64,000 bases of DNA from Escherichia coli 042 (lineage in GTDB: Bacteria > Pseudomonadota > Gammaproteobacteria > Enterobacterales > Enterobacteriaceae): assembly GCF_000027125.1 (NCBI RefSeq), contig NC_017626.1. One strand, written 5' to 3'. The position numbers and the translations under genes were made by a program. The notes below the pieces were generated by a model, which saw nothing but the letters and a program-made list of their open reading frames with translations, did no database searches and was not told the DNA's origin. Shown here piece by piece: positions 1-10,546 of this stretch. The number at the start of each line of letters is the position of its first letter. Positions within the stretch are counted from its first letter, which is position 1.

Positions 1-1
1 T

Positions 2-76
2 ATCGCCATTCTTATCCTCAAACTCATTGTTGCAGCACTGCAACTGCTTGATGCTGTTCTGAAATACCTGAAGTAA
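2..76 (+). CDS. tisB: Type I toxin TisB, C-terminal 24 codons (5' end lies before the window)
   Basis: In-frame translation IAILILKLIVAALQLLDAVLKYLK* matches the remembered TisB C-terminus; it sits directly upstream of emrD as in K-12. Confidence 0.6.
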   Translation: MAILILKLIVAALQLLDAVLKYLK

Positions 77-96
77 TTCAGATTCAAGTCGCACCA

Positions 97-126
97 AAGG
101 GGAGCGGTTACCCGCTCCCCTTTTAT
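97..126 (+). terminator. Rho-independent terminator downstream of tisB
   Basis: GC-rich inverted repeat aaggggagcgg/ccgctcccctt with a 4-nt loop, followed by TTTT. Confidence 0.6.
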
Positions 127-355
127 ATTTAGCGTGTGGGTTGGTGTCGGATGCGATGCTGATGCATCTTATCCGCCCTACCATCCCTCCCGGCAACATT
201 TATTGCCGCTTTTGTTTACATATTCTGCCGCTAAACAATTCCCCATTCCTGGCGTATATCTGGCTAACATTTATCAATGTGATAGATTCCTCTCCCGCAT
301 TTATGGGAATGCGTAGTGACTTATTCTAATTATTTTTATAAAAGCATCCGTGATA

Positions 356-1540
356 ATGAAAAGGCATAGAAACGTCAATTTGTTATTGATGTTGGTATTA
401 CTCGTGGCCGTCGGTCAGATGGCGCAAACCATTTATATTCCAGCTATTGCCGATATGGCGCGCGATCTCAACGTCCGTGAAGGGGCGGTGCAGAGCGTAA
501 TGGGCGCTTATCTGCTGACTTACGGTGTCTCACAGCTGTTTTATGGCCCGATTTCCGACCGTGTGGGTCGCCGACCTGTGATCCTCGTCGGAATGTCCAT
601 TTTTATGCTGGCAACGCTGGTCGCGGTCACGACCTCCAGTTTGACAGTATTGATTGCCGCCAGCGCGATGCAGGGGATGGGCACCGGCGTTGGCGGCGTA
701 ATGGCGCGTACGTTGCCGCGTGATTTATATGAACGAACACAGTTGCGCCATGCTAATAGCCTGTTAAACATGGGAATTCTTGTCAGTCCGTTACTCGCAC
801 CGCTAATCGGCGGTCTGCTGGATACGATGTGGAACTGGCGCGCCTGTTATCTCTTTTTGTTGGTACTTTGTGCCGGTGTGACCTTCAGTATGGCCCGCTG
901 GATGCCGGAAACGCGTCCGGTCGACGCACCGCGCACACGCCTGCTTACCAGTTATAAAACGCTTTTCGGTAACAGCGGTTTTAACTGTTATTTGCTGATG
1001 CTGATTGGCGGTCTGGCAGGGATTGCCGCCTTTGAAGCCTGCTCCGGCGTGCTGATGGGCGCGGTATTAGGGCTGAGCAGTATGACGGTCAGTATTTTGT
1101 TTATTCTGCCGATTCCGGCGGCATTTTTTGGGGCATGGTTTGCCGGACGTCCTAATAAACGCTTCTCAACGTTGATGTGGCAGTCGGTTATCTGCTGCCT
1201 GCTGGCTGGCTTGCTGATGTGGATCCCCGACTGGTTTGGCGTGATGAATGTCTGGACGCTGCTCGTTCCCGCCGCGCTGTTCTTTTTCGGTGCCGGGATG
1301 CTGTTTCCGCTGGCGACCAGCGGCGCGATGGAGCCGTTCCCTTTCCTGGCGGGCACGGCTGGCGCGCTGGTCGGCGGTCTACAAAACATTGGTTCCGGCG
1401 TGCTGGCGTCGCTCTCTGCGATGTTGCCGCAAACCGGTCAGGGCAGCCTGGGGTTGTTGATGACCTTAATGGGATTGTTGATCGTGCTGTGCTGGCTACC
1501 GCTGGCGACGCGGATGTCGCATCAGGGGCAGCCCGTTTAA
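356..1540 (+). CDS. emrD: MFS multidrug efflux transporter EmrD
   Basis: ORF 350..1540; the translation from the internal ATG (MKRHRNVNLLLMLVLLVAVGQMAQTIYIPAIADMARDL...) is near-identical to remembered K-12 EmrD (394 aa). Confidence 0.93.
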   Translation: MKRHRNVNLLLMLVLLVAVGQMAQTIYIPAIADMARDLNVREGAVQSVMGAYLLTYGVSQLFYGPISDRVGRRPVILVGMSIFMLATLVAVTTSSLTVLIAASAMQGMGTGVGGVMARTLPRDLYERTQLRHANSLLNMGILVSPLLAPLIGGLLDTMWNWRACYLFLLVLCAGVTFSMARWMPETRPVDAPRTRLLTSYKTLFGNSGFNCYLLMLIGGLAGIAAFEACSGVLMGAVLGLSSMTVSILFILPIPAAFFGAWFAGRPNKRFSTLMWQSVICCLLAGLLMWIPDWFGVMNVWTLLVPAALFFFGAGMLFPLATSGAMEPFPFLAGTAGALVGGLQNIGSGVLASLSAMLPQTGQGSLGLLMTLMGLLIVLCWLPLATRMSHQGQPV

Positions 1541-1547
1541 GCTCAAG

Positions 1548-2045
1548 TCACCGCAGCATCGTCATCAGCTCCATGGGAGAACGATGCTGCTTTATCAGAT
1601 CACGCATCACCCGCATATGCGGTGCGGAGTAAGAATAAAACGCCTGATAGTCCGCACATAGCACGCTGTCTGGCATCGCCTCCCGAGCGTGCGGACACAG
1701 CCGATGCCAGTCGCACGCCTGGCAGTCACGGCGCGGTTGCGGGTTTTCGCTGCCACACCATTTTTGTAAGGTGGCGTCAAAAAGCTCAATCGAGATACGA
1801 CTGATATCTGCCCGTACCCAACACTCGAACAGGGCAATTAAAAATTTCCCCCACAGCTCTGCTGTCACCGAAGCGGCCGTCAGATCGCCCCGGTCATCAA
1901 ATTCAAGATGGGGAATAAGCTGTACGGAGCGGAGCCCCCGCTGTTTGAAATTGTGATAAAAATCGGCAGGTTGCAGAGCATCCTTATACTCTACAACCAG
2001 TTTATGCCTGTCCTCTTCAGCATCAATGACCTGACTTCCTGTCAT
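1548..2045 (-). CDS. yidF: YidF, Cys-rich protein encoded next to the yidJ sulfatase
   Basis: 165-aa ORF with C-x-x-C-containing segment (CQACDWHRLCPH); position and size match K-12 yidF; overlaps yidG by 4 bp. Confidence 0.8.
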   Translation of the reverse strand: MTGSQVIDAEEDRHKLVVEYKDALQPADFYHNFKQRGLRSVQLIPHLEFDDRGDLTAASVTAELWGKFLIALFECWVRADISRISIELFDATLQKWCGSENPQPRRDCQACDWHRLCPHAREAMPDSVLCADYQAFYSYSAPHMRVMRDLIKQHRSPMELMTMLR

Positions 2046-2404
2046 GCGACTCTCTCAATAAATACGATAAGTTGATGTATATGCGTTACAGCAAACAGTA
2101 TTGCGAGAGATAACACCGCGAGGGAGATCAAAAATTTGTCACGGACTACGTGAAATTGGGAAAAATCGCTATTCGTGACATCCATTAAATTGCGATTACG
2201 GGTGTAGTGCCAGAGGATCAGCGCCACGATGGCGAGGATGCCAATCGAAATCCAGAATAACATGCCCGCATGGTGCCAGTTGTGTTTGATAACCAACGCC
2301 ATCAACGCGCCGTAGCCCAGCATGGTACGAAACCACGCCAGTGATGTACGCTCCGGCTGCAGCCCTGGGTCGGCAATGCGTCTGGCTTTGCGGCTATCCG
2401 GCAT
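2042..2404 (-). CDS. yidG: Inner membrane protein YidG
   Basis: 120-aa hydrophobic ORF, overlapping yidF and yidH (operon arrangement). Confidence 0.8.
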   Translation of the reverse strand: MPDSRKARRIADPGLQPERTSLAWFRTMLGYGALMALVIKHNWHHAGMLFWISIGILAIVALILWHYTRNRNLMDVTNSDFSQFHVVRDKFLISLAVLSLAILFAVTHIHQLIVFIERVA

Positions 2405-2741
2405 ACAACACCAGTCCCATGACGATCACCGCCACGATCATCAATATTAAGCTGATGATTAATAAGCTGTTGGTATAGGGCAGGTCCTCTTTCAGACGCA
2501 TCGCTTTTTCATTGCGTAACCAGCGCAAGTAGCCATACATCGCTAACCCGCCGGAAAACAGACACAACAACAACGCCAGCAGTTCGCGAATGACGGGCGT
2601 GGCGAAATCTGGCGCAAGTTGGTCAAGCCCAACCCCCGCCGCCAGAAATCCTAGTGCGGTACGGATCCACGCCAGAAAAGTACGCTCATTAGCCAGCGAG
2701 AAGCGGTAATCGGGCGCTTCTCCGAGGCGGGAAATTTTCAT
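2394..2741 (-). CDS. yidH: Inner membrane protein YidH (DUF202-like)
   Basis: 115-aa ORF with two hydrophobic segments, first gene of a yidHGF overlap series. Confidence 0.8.
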   Translation of the reverse strand: MKISRLGEAPDYRFSLANERTFLAWIRTALGFLAAGVGLDQLAPDFATPVIRELLALLLCLFSGGLAMYGYLRWLRNEKAMRLKEDLPYTNSLLIISLILMIVAVIVMGLVLYAG

Positions 2742-2849
2742 TGTTGCTCCTTTGCAATTTCACTAACGCTCTATCTTTAGCGGTTTTTTTTAAGAATTTC
2801 GTCCGCCCGTTTCCTGATATGCTTTTGCCATCCGCTACAAGGAGGTCAG

Positions 2850-3299
2850 ATGGGTATCATAGCTCAAAATAAAATCAGTTCATTGGGCATGCTGTTCGGT
2901 GCCATCGCTTTAATGATGGGGATTATCCACTTTTCATTCGGCCCTTTTTCCGCACCACCGCCAACGCTTGAAAGCATCGTGGCGGACAAAACGGCTGAAA
3001 TTAAAAGAGGTCTTCTCGCCGGAATAAAAGGCGAAAAAATTACCACCGTGGAGAAAAAAGAGGACGTGGATGTCGATAAAATCCTCGATCAAAGCGGTAT
3101 CGCACTGGCCATTGCTGCGCTACTTTGCGCATTTGTTGGCGGTATGCGTAAGGAAAATCGCTGGGGCATTCGCGGCGCGCTGGTTTTTGGCGGCGGGACG
3201 CTGGCTTTCCATACCTTGCTTTTTGGTATCGGCATCGTGTGCAGCATTTTGCTGATATTCCTTATCTTTTCCTTCCTGACCGGCGGTTCGCTGGTTTAA
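2850..3299 (+). CDS. yidI: Inner membrane protein YidI
   Basis: 149-aa hydrophobic ORF preceded by aaggaggt RBS; synteny. Confidence 0.8.
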   Translation: MGIIAQNKISSLGMLFGAIALMMGIIHFSFGPFSAPPPTLESIVADKTAEIKRGLLAGIKGEKITTVEKKEDVDVDKILDQSGIALAIAALLCAFVGGMRKENRWGIRGALVFGGGTLAFHTLLFGIGIVCSILLIFLIFSFLTGGSLV

Positions 3300-3345
3300 G
3301 CAGCCTGAATAATGCCCGCCGGGTGATCATCAGCGGGCATTATCG

Positions 3346-4839
3346 TCAGAACTTCTGTTTTTTCTCTTCCACCTTCACCCCTTGTGTCGGTAGGCCGGTG
3401 TCATAGTCGCGTACCACTGGCGAATAGCCATCTTGTGGGCGTGGACGAAACGCCCCCATCCAGCGCGGTCGTGCATCTTTACGCCACGGACGCAGACTCC
3501 ATTGGTAACTGCGGAACGGATCGCGAATTTTATCCATGTAATCCAATAAGGCGTCATGCATTTTGCTGCGCACGTCGGCAAAACGGATATCATCTATCAG
3601 GTTATGCATTTCATTTGAATCATTACGGCGATCGTAAAGTTCATCACTGGTGAAGAGGTTGAGCACCAGTTTAAAGTCATCCGTCACCCAGCAACGCACC
3701 GGAATAAAACCGCCAAAGCTGTCATGCTCAATCTCGTAGCGGTTAAATTCCACCATCACGCCGCGTGGCTCTGTCACGGCAAGGATATTTTCCCCCGGCA
3801 GAATCTCTGGTTTTTCAATATCTGCCAGCGCCATCATTGTCGGCAGTAAATCGATATGACTGACTGGCGTATCGACCTGTCGCCGCTCCCCTTGCGGCGA
3901 ACGGATGATCAGCGGAATGCGGGTGATGTCGTCATACATCGCCGCCCCTTTACTGATCAGCTTATGTGCGCCCATCATTTCGCCGTGATCGGAGGTATAA
4001 ATAACCCACGTATTTTCACGTTGCTCTGGCGTTAAGGCATTGATGACCCGTCCGATTTGGTCATCAACAAAGTCATTACAGGCAAAATAGAGCGGATGGT
4101 GATAAAGCCCGTCATCACCGACTGGCGATGGCATCGCCTGCGCCCATAAGCGGTGATGTTCCGGTTTGTTAGCCAGGTCATCCTGTGCTTTCTCGCCCAG
4201 CTCGTAGTAAAAATCAGCGTATTTCTCTAAATACTCCACCGGACAGGTGAACGGGTGATGCGGCTCATCATACGAAACCACCATCAGGAAGGGTTCCTCG
4301 GCGCGCGCGGGCTGTTGCAGAAAATCTACCGCCCGATTGCTGATGCGGTGCGCCCAGGTGAAGGTTTCGTCGATATGGTTCGCCTGTAAATCCTCAACGC
4401 TGTTTAGGCCATTGCGCCACAGGCTGATCTCTTTTTCCGTCAGTTCGCTAAGGTAGTTCGCCCCATCGAACCAGTAATCAGCGTCCCACTCCGGCGGACA
4501 CTCGCCAGTGCCGAAATAGTCATGACCGTCGAGATGCCATTTGCCAATGTAACAGGTGTGATAGCCCGCATCCTTAAAGTAGCGCCCCATGGTGGAAATG
4601 TTTTTACCTGGCGCGACGTTGTTGGTCCACGGGCCGGACTGGTTAGCGTAGATACCGGTAAACAGCCCGGCGCGCGCTGGTGTACAAACCGGTGAACAGG
4701 TATAGGCGGAATTAAAGCGAATACTTTCCGCCGCCAGACTATCAATATTTTGCGTATTCAGCGGCTTACCGCTATAGCAACCGACCATATTGGTGGCCTG
4801 GGTATCGGTCATGATGAACAGAAAATTGGGGCGTTTCAT
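3346..4839 (-). CDS. yidJ: Sulfatase/arylsulfatase-family protein YidJ
   Basis: 497-aa ORF; N-terminal sulfatase signature region (CTPARAGLFTG) around the Cys that becomes formylglycine in this family. Confidence 0.88.
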   Translation of the reverse strand: MKRPNFLFIMTDTQATNMVGCYSGKPLNTQNIDSLAAESIRFNSAYTCSPVCTPARAGLFTGIYANQSGPWTNNVAPGKNISTMGRYFKDAGYHTCYIGKWHLDGHDYFGTGECPPEWDADYWFDGANYLSELTEKEISLWRNGLNSVEDLQANHIDETFTWAHRISNRAVDFLQQPARAEEPFLMVVSYDEPHHPFTCPVEYLEKYADFYYELGEKAQDDLANKPEHHRLWAQAMPSPVGDDGLYHHPLYFACNDFVDDQIGRVINALTPEQRENTWVIYTSDHGEMMGAHKLISKGAAMYDDITRIPLIIRSPQGERRQVDTPVSHIDLLPTMMALADIEKPEILPGENILAVTEPRGVMVEFNRYEIEHDSFGGFIPVRCWVTDDFKLVLNLFTSDELYDRRNDSNEMHNLIDDIRFADVRSKMHDALLDYMDKIRDPFRSYQWSLRPWRKDARPRWMGAFRPRPQDGYSPVVRDYDTGLPTQGVKVEEKKQKF

Positions 4840-6551
4840 AGGCTATCCTTCGCGTCGGGAGTAAAGGTTACGGCTGGGTCGTGACGATGCCGCCAGCTAT
4901 CAAAAATCAGGTAGACAATCACTACGGCAGCGATGAAATAACTGATCATCGCTAACCAGCGCGTACCGTAGCCGCCGAATTCAGCCAGCCCGGCATAGAC
5001 GCCAATCATCGCGAACAGGATGCCAATTGACGCGATCTTGACGTTTTTCCACGGTTTCATGTCCACCGCAAACGCATCGTTGAAGGTGAACGGCGTGGCG
5101 CGCGGTTTGATAAAACCGATCACCAGCATCACGACCACGTTGATGCAGAACGTACAGGCCAGCACATAGAGGAAATGGAAGTCGAACTTCACCAGATAGT
5201 TGATGGTGATGTAGCTGATTATGCCAATCCCCATCGCCACTTTTGCCGCCAGCGCCGGAATGCGCGGGAAGAAAAAGCCCATAATGATGATGGTAACCAG
5301 CGGCACGTTGTAAATACCGTTGAGCTGTTTCATCCAGCTATATAGCCCCTGCGGCGCGTTGGCGATCCACGGCGCGACCAGCACCGAAACGATAGCGATA
5401 AAGAAACCAAATTTGCGCCCGACGGTGACCAGCTGCTGCGGCTCGGCATTCTGGTTAATGATGCGCCGGTAAATACCCATACTGAATAACGTACTGGCGC
5501 TATTCAGAAAGCCGTTGAAGGTACTGATCACCGCACCAAATAACACCGCGCCGAAGAAACCCACCAGTGGCACTGGCAGAACGTTATTGACCAGCGTCGG
5601 GTAGGCCATGTCGGCTTTAGGTAAATCCTGATACAGATGAAACGCAATCAACCCTGGCAGCACCAGTACCAGCGGGTCGAGCATTTTCAGCACCGCCGTT
5701 AACAGCGCCCCCTTTTGCCCTTCCGCCAGGCTTTTTGACGCCAGTGTGCGTTGCACGATGCCCTGATTTGTACACCAGTAAAAGGTGTTCACCAGAATCA
5801 AACCGGTAAATGCCGCGCCAATCGGCAAGGGATCGGTCGGGCCGCCGACTGAGTTTAATTTCTCGGCGTGAACGGTGGTGAGTTGCTCAATGCCCTGCAT
5901 AAAGCTGCCCTTGCCCATCGCGATCAGGCCAAATATCGGCACCATCAACCCGCCAATAACCAGCCCAATACCGTTAATGGAGTCTGCCACTGCCATTGCG
6001 CGCAGTCCGCCGATCACCGCATACAAAATTCCCGCCATACCAAGCAAAATAACCAGTAGCCAGATCGCTGCGCCGTGGGAAATTTGTAACGATTCCCCGA
6101 CGTGAAACAGGCTGTTGAGCGCCAACGCGCCGGAGTAGAGAACAATCGGCAGAAAGCAGACACCGGTGGCAATGAGGAAGCAGAAGTCGATGATAATACG
6201 CGTCGTTTTATCATAACGTTCCTCCAGGAAATCGGGGATGGTGGCAATGCCACGCTTCAGATAGCGCGGTAAAAAGATTAGCGCGAGGAAGATCAGCGTC
6301 ACCGCAGAAGTGACTTCCCAGCCCATCACCGACATGCCGCTTTTGTAGGCCTGCCCGGAAAGTCCAACCAGTTGTTCCGTGGAAAGGTTGGTTAGCATTA
6401 ACGAAGCGGCAATAACCGGCGCTTTTAGTGAACGTCCGGCAAGAAAATAGCCTTGTTGCGATCCGGTATCTGTTTTGCGGACCTTCCACCAGGTGATGAC
6501 CGCCACCAGCAGCGTAAAACCGACAAAACTCAAGATTTGTAACGAATTCAT
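4836..6551 (-). CDS. yidK: Sodium:solute symporter (SSS) family transporter YidK
   Basis: 571-aa polytopic membrane ORF, 4-bp overlap with yidJ; synteny. Confidence 0.88.
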   Translation of the reverse strand: MNSLQILSFVGFTLLVAVITWWKVRKTDTGSQQGYFLAGRSLKAPVIAASLMLTNLSTEQLVGLSGQAYKSGMSVMGWEVTSAVTLIFLALIFLPRYLKRGIATIPDFLEERYDKTTRIIIDFCFLIATGVCFLPIVLYSGALALNSLFHVGESLQISHGAAIWLLVILLGMAGILYAVIGGLRAMAVADSINGIGLVIGGLMVPIFGLIAMGKGSFMQGIEQLTTVHAEKLNSVGGPTDPLPIGAAFTGLILVNTFYWCTNQGIVQRTLASKSLAEGQKGALLTAVLKMLDPLVLVLPGLIAFHLYQDLPKADMAYPTLVNNVLPVPLVGFFGAVLFGAVISTFNGFLNSASTLFSMGIYRRIINQNAEPQQLVTVGRKFGFFIAIVSVLVAPWIANAPQGLYSWMKQLNGIYNVPLVTIIIMGFFFPRIPALAAKVAMGIGIISYITINYLVKFDFHFLYVLACTFCINVVVMLVIGFIKPRATPFTFNDAFAVDMKPWKNVKIASIGILFAMIGVYAGLAEFGGYGTRWLAMISYFIAAVVIVYLIFDSWRHRHDPAVTFTPDAKDSL

Positions 6552-6717
6552 CTCATAGCCCTTATTTATGTTTATGTCCCGGACGCATGAATATAGGGAG
6601 AGGTAAAATGCGTCGGGTCAGGCAGTCAGATTCTTAAAATACAAACGTCGTATCCCTGAACGGATTGTTTTCTGTTAAGTTCAGGTTGTGAGCATAATTC
6701 GCCGGAGGGATATTAAA

Positions 6718-10546
<3,829 letters not shown>

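Follow-up and report, generated by a model that had tools for sequence, protein, structure and literature searches.

Escherichia coli YidF, a predicted remnant of an anSME beside the sulfatase YidJ and the DUF202 proteins YidH and YidG

Radical-SAM enzymes bind SAM through a GGE(P) motif. In anSMEcpe (PDB 4K36-4K39), one of the anaerobic sulfatase-maturating enzymes (anSMEs; radical SAM/SPASM), the ligands of the Aux I and Aux II [4Fe-4S] clusters have been identified (PMC5715301), being C255, C261, C276 and C330 for Aux I and C317, C320, C326 and C348 for Aux II. Twitch domains are without the CX2CX5CX3C motif (PMC5715301). YidF of E. coli shares common descent with anSMEcpe, AslB and YdeM by sequence and fold, and it also lies in a sulfatase cluster. 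It retains the CX2CX5C...C cysteines of the anSMEcpe Aux II site, but has neither the CX3CX2C and GGE motifs nor the Aux I ligands, and it carries a tail that AslB and YdeM are missing. As in SPASM and Twitch domains, its cysteine motif belongs to the C-terminal auxiliary-cluster region, and, similarly to a Twitch domain, YidF would hold one cluster at most. However, the pattern of loss is the opposite of that in Twitch domains, since YidF keeps three cysteines of CX2CX5CX3C, which are Aux II ligands, and lacks those of Aux I; moreover, unlike SPASM and Twitch domains, it is not joined to a radical-SAM domain. With the aerobic formylglycine-generating enzyme (FGE) it shares only the presumed context, the activation of a Cys-type sulfatase: YidF matched no FGE-sulfatase domain in Pfam or NCBIfam and no FGE fold by Foldseek. 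Among the closest known relatives are full-length YidF orthologues, with which E. coli YidF has in common the locus, the ATGA coupling to yidG, an MTGC-type start, the C-terminal tail and 42-48% identity over the shared residues. These orthologues are complete anSMEs above the equivalog cut-off, whereas E. coli has a remnant only.

The window analysed is a stretch of 64,000 nucleotides from E. coli 042, in which positions 1548-6551 hold the yidF-yidG-yidH-(yidI)-yidJ-yidK region, as seen from ORFs and gene-name annotation; this is E. coli chromosome, with 99.6% identity to strain ECA64. The yidF CDS (1548..2045, minus strand) encodes 165 aa and is listed as an internally deleted anSME derivative on the basis of the ORF list and a TIGR03942 match. 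There are two genes for DUF202 inner-membrane proteins, yidG (2042..2404, minus; Pfam PF02656, E 3e-12) and the extremely conserved yidH (2394..2741, minus; PF02656, E 4e-19). A Cys-type (formylglycine-dependent) sulfatase of 497 aa is encoded by yidJ (3346..4839, minus; PF00884, E 2e-71), and a sodium:solute symporter of 571 aa by yidK (4836..6551, minus; SSF PF00474, E 3e-50; NF007790, 855.9 bits), presumed to import the sulfated substrate. The divergent yidL (6688..7611, plus) encodes an AraC-family regulator with Pfam HTH_AraC and AraC_binding matches. An earlier note on this DNA had described yidJ and the SSS transporter gene yidK as co-oriented, next to a yidHGF overlap series. Both descriptions hold, with ATGA overlaps at the yidK/yidJ and yidG/yidF junctions and an 11 nt overlap between yidH and yidG. 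The genes do not, however, form a single co-oriented block, as the small membrane-protein gene yidI (2850..3299, plus) is interposed between yidJ and yidH.

E. coli YidF matches NCBIfam TIGR03942, the anSME model, with E 1e-19, but its score of 70.8 bits is one fifth of the curated equivalog cut-off of 349.45. The HMM match covers model positions 160-245 of 363, after which the protein continues with the last third of the enzyme. Sequence alignment to anSMEcpe from the PDB falls into two blocks, YidF residues 27-95 with 175-246 and residues 103-152 with 312-370. In a Foldseek search of the PDB (significance at E <= 0.001) with the AlphaFold (AF2) model of YidF (pLDDT 82.9), anSMEcpe 4K36-4K39 were the sole significant matches (E 2e-6, TM 0.63-0.65). 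Residues 17-96 (1758..1997, minus), modelled with pLDDT >90, correspond to the end of the radical-SAM barrel and are homologous to anSMEcpe 175-246. The Pfam SPASM model PF13186 gave no match, and neither Pfam nor Foldseek against the PDB detected a ferredoxin or thioredoxin-like family or fold. Thus, of the two comparisons that the earlier note had proposed for YidF, that with anSME/SPASM proteins was borne out by sequence and fold and that with thioredoxin-like folds was not.

Much of the enzyme is missing. The CX3CX2C motif for the radical-SAM [4Fe-4S] cluster is absent from E. coli YidF in the motif table and in alignments with AslB, YdeM and the full-length orthologues; also gone, with gaps in alignment columns 7-155, are the barrel's first four beta/alpha units together with the GGE(P) motif. 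None of the Aux I ligands is found in E. coli YidF: three lie within a deleted segment and the fourth in a 4-residue gap. In all, the radical-SAM core has lost about 150 residues and the SPASM domain about 60, three Aux I cysteines among the latter. The N-terminus MTGSQV (2028..2045, minus) keeps the original start, as full-length orthologues begin MTGCQVMAKP..., so that yidF underwent in-frame internal deletion rather than acquiring a new start; the MTGC/S start is retained by the short forms in general. Judged from these alignments, YidF is a descendant of an anSME with two in-frame internal deletions, through which the radical-SAM core and, in the SPASM domain, the Aux I half were lost. A role of E. 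coli YidF as a radical-SAM maturase was rejected on the missing motifs and the low score.

Four putative equivalents of the Aux II ligands remain in residues 108-130 (1656..1724, minus). C108, C111, C117 and C130 of this CX2CX5C...C motif align with anSMEcpe C317, C320, C326 and C348, and the C-x-x-C spacing noticed earlier lies in CQACDWHRLCPH (residues 108-119; window 1689-1724, minus). It is not a chance motif, as among 54 aligned homologues C108, C111 and C130 never vary and C117 hardly does. The third cysteine is replaced by Tyr in one Citrobacter clade; its placement by MAFFT is ambiguous, and the CX2CX5C spacing favours the HMMER alignment. Model confidence is lowest in the cysteine loop (pLDDT 57-64), and the four cysteines may possibly bind one Fe-S cluster. 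The protein ends with the tail QAFYSYSAPHMRVMRDLIKQHRSPMELMTMLR (residues 134-165; 1551..1646, minus), which has invariant columns and is specific to the YidF clade; in the alignments it was found neither in AslB and YdeM nor in distant radical-SAM enzymes adjoining DUF202 genes.

Comparison was made over 55 species-level loci, the window and 54 related ones, comprising 22 full-length-class and 33 short-form loci. Full-length orthologues (370-374 aa) occur in Atlantibacter, Kluyvera, Yokenella, Kosakonia, Leclercia sp. and several Citrobacter; they score 469-484 bits on TIGR03942 and carry CX3CX2C as CNLxCRYC. An intact yidK-yidJ-yidH-yidG-yidF cluster ends with full-length yidF in Atlantibacter, Kluyvera and several Citrobacter, and nine full-length-class loci have yidL-yidK-yidJ-yidH-yidG-yidF in one direction. 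All 11 full-length genes that adjoin a sulfatase keep every motif, as do 4 of the 11 without a sulfatase, the other 7 being degenerate or frameshifted; phylogeny confounds this association, Kosakonia being the source of most degenerate cases. These loci show an ancestral cluster of yidL, the importer gene yidK, the sulfatase gene yidJ, yidH, yidG and a maturase gene of which yidF is the remnant.

Shortening was repeated. Three or more lineages independently underwent large deletions, all of them in frame. A single clade of all short forms has a bootstrap of 5/100, and a clade of full-length Leclercia, short Leclercia and Silvania one of 92/100. A 192-aa form from C. amalonaticus still carries CX3CX2C; over residues 17-96 its closest relatives are full-length C. 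amalonaticus genes, one of which is, in the tail as well, a joint closest relative. By these trees and alignments, the short forms arose more than once. The same two radical-SAM/SPASM segments were lost in frame repeatedly, with the Aux II and tail unit kept under selection each time, which suggests that the maturase had a second, non-catalytic role.

The sulfatase domain of YidJ begins at residue 4, hence there is no signal peptide and YidJ is cytoplasmic. Its closest solved relatives are carbohydrate sulfatases. The formylglycine target motif is C52-T-P-A-R56 (4672..4686, minus); CTPARAGLFTG from C52 is invariant in 17 YidJ orthologues and fits the signature C/S-x-P-x-R-x(4)-T-G. As YidF is without every SAM-cleavage motif, we infer that it cannot itself convert Cys52 to formylglycine; YidJ being intact and strongly constrained, it would have to be matured in trans. 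Candidate maturases are AslB and YdeM, full-length paralogues of YidF whose genes are present in 5425 and 5346, respectively, of 5426 E. coli genomes. Work by Benjdia and colleagues from 2007 reportedly supports a sulfatase maturation in E. coli that is independent of AslB and YdeM. The RefSeq PGAP label of E. coli YidF, 'radical SAM protein', wrongly invites the assumption that YidJ has a neighbouring maturase; for work on YidJ, or with E. coli as the host of Cys-type sulfatases, the places to look are AslB, YdeM or a third system.

Our preferred reading, to which we assign a probability of about 0.7, is that YidF is a gutted anSME remnant that does not activate YidJ and has been kept as a non-catalytic partner of YidH/YidG. 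The ancestral yidF encoded a radical-SAM/SPASM maturase for cytoplasmic YidJ at the end of the yidK-yidJ-yidH-yidG-yidF cluster. In Escherichia, the two in-frame deletions left 165 aa, made of the start of the ancestral protein, the last segment of the barrel, the four cysteines of Aux II type and the clade-specific tail, and YidJ would now be matured by AslB, YdeM or the system independent of both. The partnership with membrane YidH/YidG, possibly with one Fe-S cluster in YidF, would be a second function retained from the old maturase. Partnership in the cytoplasm with YidH/YidG is the most likely present role, the evidence for it being gene order and selection: yidH-yidG lie directly upstream of yidF in all 55 loci, and short YidF is under constraint. 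One genome each of Enterobacter kobei and Salmonella enterica, among those examined, has yidH-yidG without any yidF, and YidF is therefore dispensable for YidH/YidG there.

Selection bears on a reading to which we give a small but real chance, that YidF is a decaying relic without present function, derived from a dispensable maturase and whittled away toward complete loss. There is indeed a graded series, from intact full-length genes through full-length genes with broken motifs (Kosakonia, RIT691, a soil MAG) and forms of 249, 220 and 192 aa to those of 165-178 aa, and then to none in E. kobei and S. enterica. Short forms also evolve faster than sulfatase-linked full-length genes, and frameshifted copies exist in E. 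albertii NBRC 107761, L. adecarboxylata NCTC13032 and Enterobacter EA-1. However, 52 of 55 loci have an unbroken ORF, nearly every complete E. coli genome (5420 of 5426) carries the gene, and decay does not readily account for large deletions that were in frame every time. The dN/dS of short forms, a simple pairwise Nei-Gojobori estimate with several pairs near saturation, is 0.09-0.32; no comparison comes near 1, even for pairs with dS >1. By segment it is 0.19 for residues 17-96 and 0.29 for the relatively relaxed cysteine loop, and the tail is the most constrained part, with 0.086 even though synonymous sites change freely (dS 0.45). Within Escherichia, yidF (0.09-0.11) is as constrained as its neighbours yidG and yidI; yidH stands at about 0-0.006. 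Short YidF thus appears to be kept under purifying selection and would not be neutral junk.

Somewhat less probable still, and unlikely in our view, is a small redox or Fe-S accessory for YidJ maturation, which would pass electrons to or from AslB/YdeM or present the CTPAR segment. A maturation or redox-accessory role had been guessed in the earlier note; the link to maturation gained from the anSME homology, but the loss of the radical-SAM and Aux I motifs and the lack of any thioredoxin-like or ferredoxin family or fold among the matches speak against the role itself. Retention of the four Aux II-type cysteines when all other cluster ligands were lost fits an accessory, as do the continuing need of YidJ for maturation and the 8 short-form loci that keep yidJK. 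The co-occurrence of yidF with yidJ, proposed as a check, is however partial: yidJ is carried by only 17 of the 55 loci, 23 of the 33 short-form loci are without a sulfatase within 10 kb, and yidJ is lacking from about 290 E. coli genomes that do have yidF. In addition, the dN/dS of YidJ is about 0.045 whichever form of YidF accompanies it. A further proposal is that YidF is all or part of the AslB/YdeM-independent system, acting by non-radical-SAM chemistry. YidF is the sole other anSME-related gene product encoded near a Cys-type sulfatase, but it has the catalytic motif of no known FGly-forming enzyme, is retained mostly where the adjacent sulfatase is missing and does not occur in those genomes of S. 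enterica and E. kobei that were examined; we consider the proposal very improbable. Its specific version, in which a catalytically reduced piece of SPASM, bearing a single Fe-S site, acts with YidH/YidG to support Cys-to-formylglycine conversion unlike that of FGE and radical-SAM anSMEs, seems just as far-fetched.

Distant DUF202/YidH homologues also adjoin sulfatases and full radical-SAM/SPASM enzymes in sulfatase/anSME modules. DUF202 membrane proteins are thus regular members of modules made of an importer, a cytoplasmic sulfatase and an anSME, which gives this uncharacterised family a testable context. In E. coli, yidI on the opposite strand splits the ancestral yidJ-yidH adjacency; it is not found between these genes in Atlantibacter, Kluyvera and most full-length Citrobacter loci. 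A GC-rich hairpin (3309..3343, strand unassigned), read by eye and not among the output of a simple terminator scan, occupies the gap between yidI and yidJ, whose 3' ends converge, and is likely their bidirectional terminator. With yidI on the other strand and this hairpin between the two ends, the layout suggests two predicted units in E. coli, yidKJ and yidHGF. The regulator gene yidL was found in all related loci having yidKJ.

The cysteine motif CQACDWHRLCPH pointed out in the earlier note is real and occupies residues 108-119 of YidF. A Pfam search with YidF gave no match, and its homology was seen only through NCBIfam and PDB searches. The NCBIfam model TIGR03942 was matched with an E value of 1e-19 and 70.8 bits (curated cut-off 349.45), over positions 160-245 of 363 only. 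In the PDB sequence search, YidF aligned in two blocks with anSMEcpe, the anaerobic sulfatase-maturating enzyme (anSME) of Clostridium perfringens: YidF 27-95 with residues 175-246, and YidF 103-152 with residues 312-370. An AlphaFold2 model from 54 homologues reached a pLDDT of 82.9 and a pTM of 0.79, with less confidence in the cysteine loop, and its sole significant Foldseek matches in the PDB were the anSMEcpe structures 4K36-4K39 (TM 0.63-0.65). The comparison with anSME/SPASM enzymes proposed with the motif was thus positive by both sequence and fold. The one proposed with thioredoxin-like folds was negative, as neither a thioredoxin-like nor an FGE-like family or fold was found for YidF in family searches or with Foldseek against the PDB.

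YidF was then aligned with the full-length E. coli paralogues AslB and YdeM and with full-length relatives. The N-terminus is common to both forms (MTGSQV in YidF, MTGCQVMAKP in full-length proteins). Missing from YidF are about 150 residues with the CX3CX2C radical-SAM cluster motif and the GGEP motif, and a further segment of about 60 residues with three cysteines of auxiliary cluster I (Aux I). In anSMEcpe, Aux I is held by C255, C261, C276 and C330, and Aux II by C317, C320, C326 and C348 (PMC5715301). C108, C111, C117 and C130 of YidF align exactly with the four Aux II ligands, and opposite C330 the alignment has a four-residue gap. What is left to E. coli YidF is thus one potential cluster site, with no SAM-cleaving machinery. 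Of the tests that define a radical-SAM maturase it passes common descent alone, and both its identity and its loss of catalysis are near certain.

The first 9000 nt of the window come from the E. coli chromosome; they share 99.6% identity with strain ECA64 and occur in 5422 of 5426 complete genomes. The gene order is emrD(+), yidF(-), yidG(-), yidH(-), yidI(+), yidJ(-), yidK(-), yidL(+). YidJ matches Pfam Sulfatase (E 2e-71) from residue 4 onwards and so lacks a signal peptide. YidK is a sodium:solute symporter, YidL an AraC-type regulator, and YidG and YidH are DUF202 proteins (Pfam/NCBIfam). ATGA overlaps link yidK to yidJ and yidG to yidF, and yidH and yidG overlap by 11 nt. The module described at 1548-6551 is correct in gene content and not in co-orientation, because the small membrane-protein gene yidI (2850-3299, within the region 2850-3343) runs the other way (+), between yidJ and yidH. 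A GC-rich hairpin (3309-3343) separates the convergent ends of yidI and yidJ. This layout suggests that yidKJ and yidHGF may be separate units in E. coli. A promoter/terminator scan gave no guidance, with fewer promoter-like sites than in shuffled controls. yidI occurs in Escherichia, S. arizonae and a few Citrobacter, is missing from most contiguous yidK-yidJ-yidH-yidG-yidF loci (window compared with contigs L009, L012 and L030), and seems to have been inserted later, dividing the operon.

The conserved tail (YidF residues 134-165) served as bait in a search of one genome per species, which yielded 54 loci, all from Enterobacteriaceae. The full-length class (about 350-374 aa) accounts for 22 loci, from Atlantibacter, Kluyvera, Yokenella, Kosakonia, Leclercia sp. 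and several Citrobacter. Short or intermediate forms account for 32, from Escherichia, Salmonella enterica subsp. arizonae and diarizonae, many Citrobacter, Klebsiella, Raoultella, Silvania, Superficieibacter, Pluralibacter and L. adecarboxylata. Full-length YidF scores 469-484 bits on TIGR03942, and these proteins are therefore bona fide anSMEs. Nine full-length loci read yidL / yidK-yidJ-yidH-yidG-yidF, in the same direction throughout, and yidI is absent from all but one. All motifs are kept in 11 of 11 full-length genes with a sulfatase gene within 10 kb (nine yidJ, two a different sulfatase). Without a sulfatase within 10 kb, 4 of 11 are intact and 7 have broken motifs, internal deletions or frameshifts, most of the degenerate genes being from Kosakonia, so that the counts are not independent. 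Motif integrity thus tracks the neighboring sulfatase, which supports ancestral full-length YidF as the probable maturase of that sulfatase. The role in sulfatase maturation or as a redox accessory that had been guessed for YidF is thus supported in part: it finds support for this ancestral gene and is unlikely for the E. coli short form.

For the short form, which is 165 aa in E. coli, truncation from the N-terminus with translation beginning at a new codon was considered and rejected, since its MTGC/S start and its ATGA junction with yidG are the same as in the full-length genes. Short forms therefore arose via in-frame internal deletions. A single ancient truncation was also rejected. Monophyly of all short forms has a bootstrap of 5/100, and the short Leclercia and Silvania forms cluster with a full-length Leclercia gene (92/100), to which they are closest in the middle and in the tail. 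A 192-aa form from C. amalonaticus still carries CX3CX2C; its nearest relatives in the middle region are full-length C. amalonaticus genes, one of which ties for closest in the tail. This polyphyly and the nearest-neighbor results imply at least three separate in-frame losses of the same two segments.

Pairwise dN/dS among short forms is 0.09-0.32, with 0.086 in the tail, 0.19 in the barrel segment and 0.29 in the cysteine loop. Sulfatase-linked full-length genes show 0.06-0.10. In Kosakonia full-length genes without a sulfatase, the parts lost in E. coli are relaxed (0.19 in the core and 0.37 in the Aux I segment). For the same Escherichia genome pairs, yidF has a dN/dS of 0.09-0.11, a constraint like that on yidG and yidI. 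The gene is present in 5420 of 5426 complete E. coli genomes. On the opposing side, frameshifted copies occur at 3 of 55 loci (the window and the 54 others), and yidH-yidG stand without any yidF in one examined genome each of E. kobei and S. enterica. Judged from these sequence comparisons, the short form appears to be neither a one-off accident nor neutral.

YidF's constant partner is the DUF202 pair and not the sulfatase. In the window and at each of the 54 loci, yidF comes directly after yidH-yidG. The earlier note had staked its guess on conserved cysteines and on co-occurrence with yidJ; the cysteines are conserved, and the co-occurrence goes halfway, as yidJ-yidK are found at 17 of 55 loci including the window. 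Among E. coli genomes, yidJ is present in 5131 against 5420 for yidF. Distant YidH homologues were sought by an exhaustive search of representatives, a word-indexed search being saturated by close enterobacterial orthologues; the distant DUF202 contig L068 was left out as too short to interpret. Homologues at 41-54% identity (contigs L066, L067, L069 and L070-L072) lie in four further gene arrangements, with importer, sulfatase or radical SAM genes: AraC, symporter, sulfatase and two DUF202 genes; anSME and two DUF202 genes, with a 4-nt overlap; PTS, sulfatase, GntR, two DUF202 genes and radical SAM/SPASM; and symporter, sulfatase, radical SAM/SPASM and one DUF202 gene. The three sulfatases readable in full beside distant DUF202 genes are Cys-type and without signal peptides. 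Together these arrangements and sulfatase features define a conserved module of an importer, a cytoplasmic Cys-type sulfatase, an anSME and DUF202 proteins. By gene content and sequence, the E. coli yidF-yidK region is a degraded copy of this module, and the uncharacterised DUF202/YidH family thereby gains a consistent functional context. YidH (2394-2741) is near-frozen within Escherichia (dN about 0, dN/dS 0-0.006) and 84-99% identical across Enterobacteriaceae, a conservation far above that of YidG or YidF. The one experimental hint found on what YidH/YidG do is a screen for D-alanine export in which YidH overexpression was a hit, without confirmation by transport assay (PMC10299036). The radical-SAM enzyme of L069 ends in a SEC-C-type cysteine motif.

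YidJ has an invariant CTPARAGLFTG and a dN/dS of about 0.045 regardless of whether its neighbor is full-length or short. The full-length paralogues are near-universal in E. coli (aslB in 5425 and ydeM in 5346 of 5426 genomes), and sulfatase maturation independent of AslB/YdeM has been suspected in this species (PMC8379841). YidJ would be matured in trans, by AslB or YdeM or by the suspected independent system. With less confidence, the retained unit of barrel end, Aux II-type site and clade-only tail may be selected for a non-catalytic role with YidH/YidG, and it possibly holds one Fe-S cluster. The structural model suggests that the retained pieces could pack into one compact fold, which would explain why the same pieces were kept each time. 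We give the main explanation as a whole, loss of catalysis included, a probability of about 0.7; the present function of YidF is the part that we infer.

The literature on yidF, searched in full text, gave mainly irrelevant hits and no study of its function, one mention being a typo for YdiF. An older microarray table labels YidF a 'predicted transcriptional regulator'. PGAP names it 'radical SAM protein', so the homology was already implicit, and the curated K-12 record has 'uncharacterized protein'. The searchable literature appears to hold no description of YidF as a precisely gutted anSME with Aux II ligands only, of full-length orthologues at the same locus, of a recurrent reduction whose product is under selection, or of the DUF202 pair, and not the sulfatase, as its constant partner. 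The analysis corrects a tempting mis-annotation and makes simple genetic tests available for how sulfatases mature in E. coli.

Several features of the neighborhood were also observed. In Silvania confinis and Leclercia sp. 29361 (contigs L006/L047 and L018, about 4000-8900), yidL-yidK-yidJ are swapped for a different sulfatase, PTS IIB/IIC and an arylsulfotransferase-family gene. The new block still adjoins yidH-yidG-yidF, so that the sulfatase context outlasts the exchange of modules. Downstream of yidF and convergent with it, contigs L012-L052 (e.g. L003 10544-14389) carry a PALP-family (pyridoxal-phosphate) gene like dsdA, a GntP-family permease and a LysR-family regulator. By domain families, this set looks like the D-serine locus dsdA-dsdX-dsdC. 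It is found in Citrobacter, Kosakonia, Klebsiella, Raoultella, Silvania and Leclercia, while E. coli has emrD there. The convergent emrD and yidF stop codons are only 7 bp apart (1540-1548), too close for terminators between the genes, and any termination signals must therefore sit within the opposing coding sequences. When Escherichia lineages are compared (window 1548-2404 against L053-L055), synonymous divergence within a given genome pair is much greater for yidF and yidG than for yidJ and yidK; with strain E69, dS is 1.02 for yidF and 0.13 for yidJ. This contrast points to a mosaic ancestry of the locus or to recombination across it. The window's yidF is matched at 99% or more in only 4 of 5420 E. 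coli genomes. At least 80% of window positions 1-9000 is covered in only 3966 of 5422 genomes, so the neighborhood is partly variable. Downstream of yidL, the 6-phospho-alpha-glucosidase gene (7608-8930) is an intact 440-aa ORF, whereas in K-12 the corresponding gene, glvG, carries a pseudogene annotation.
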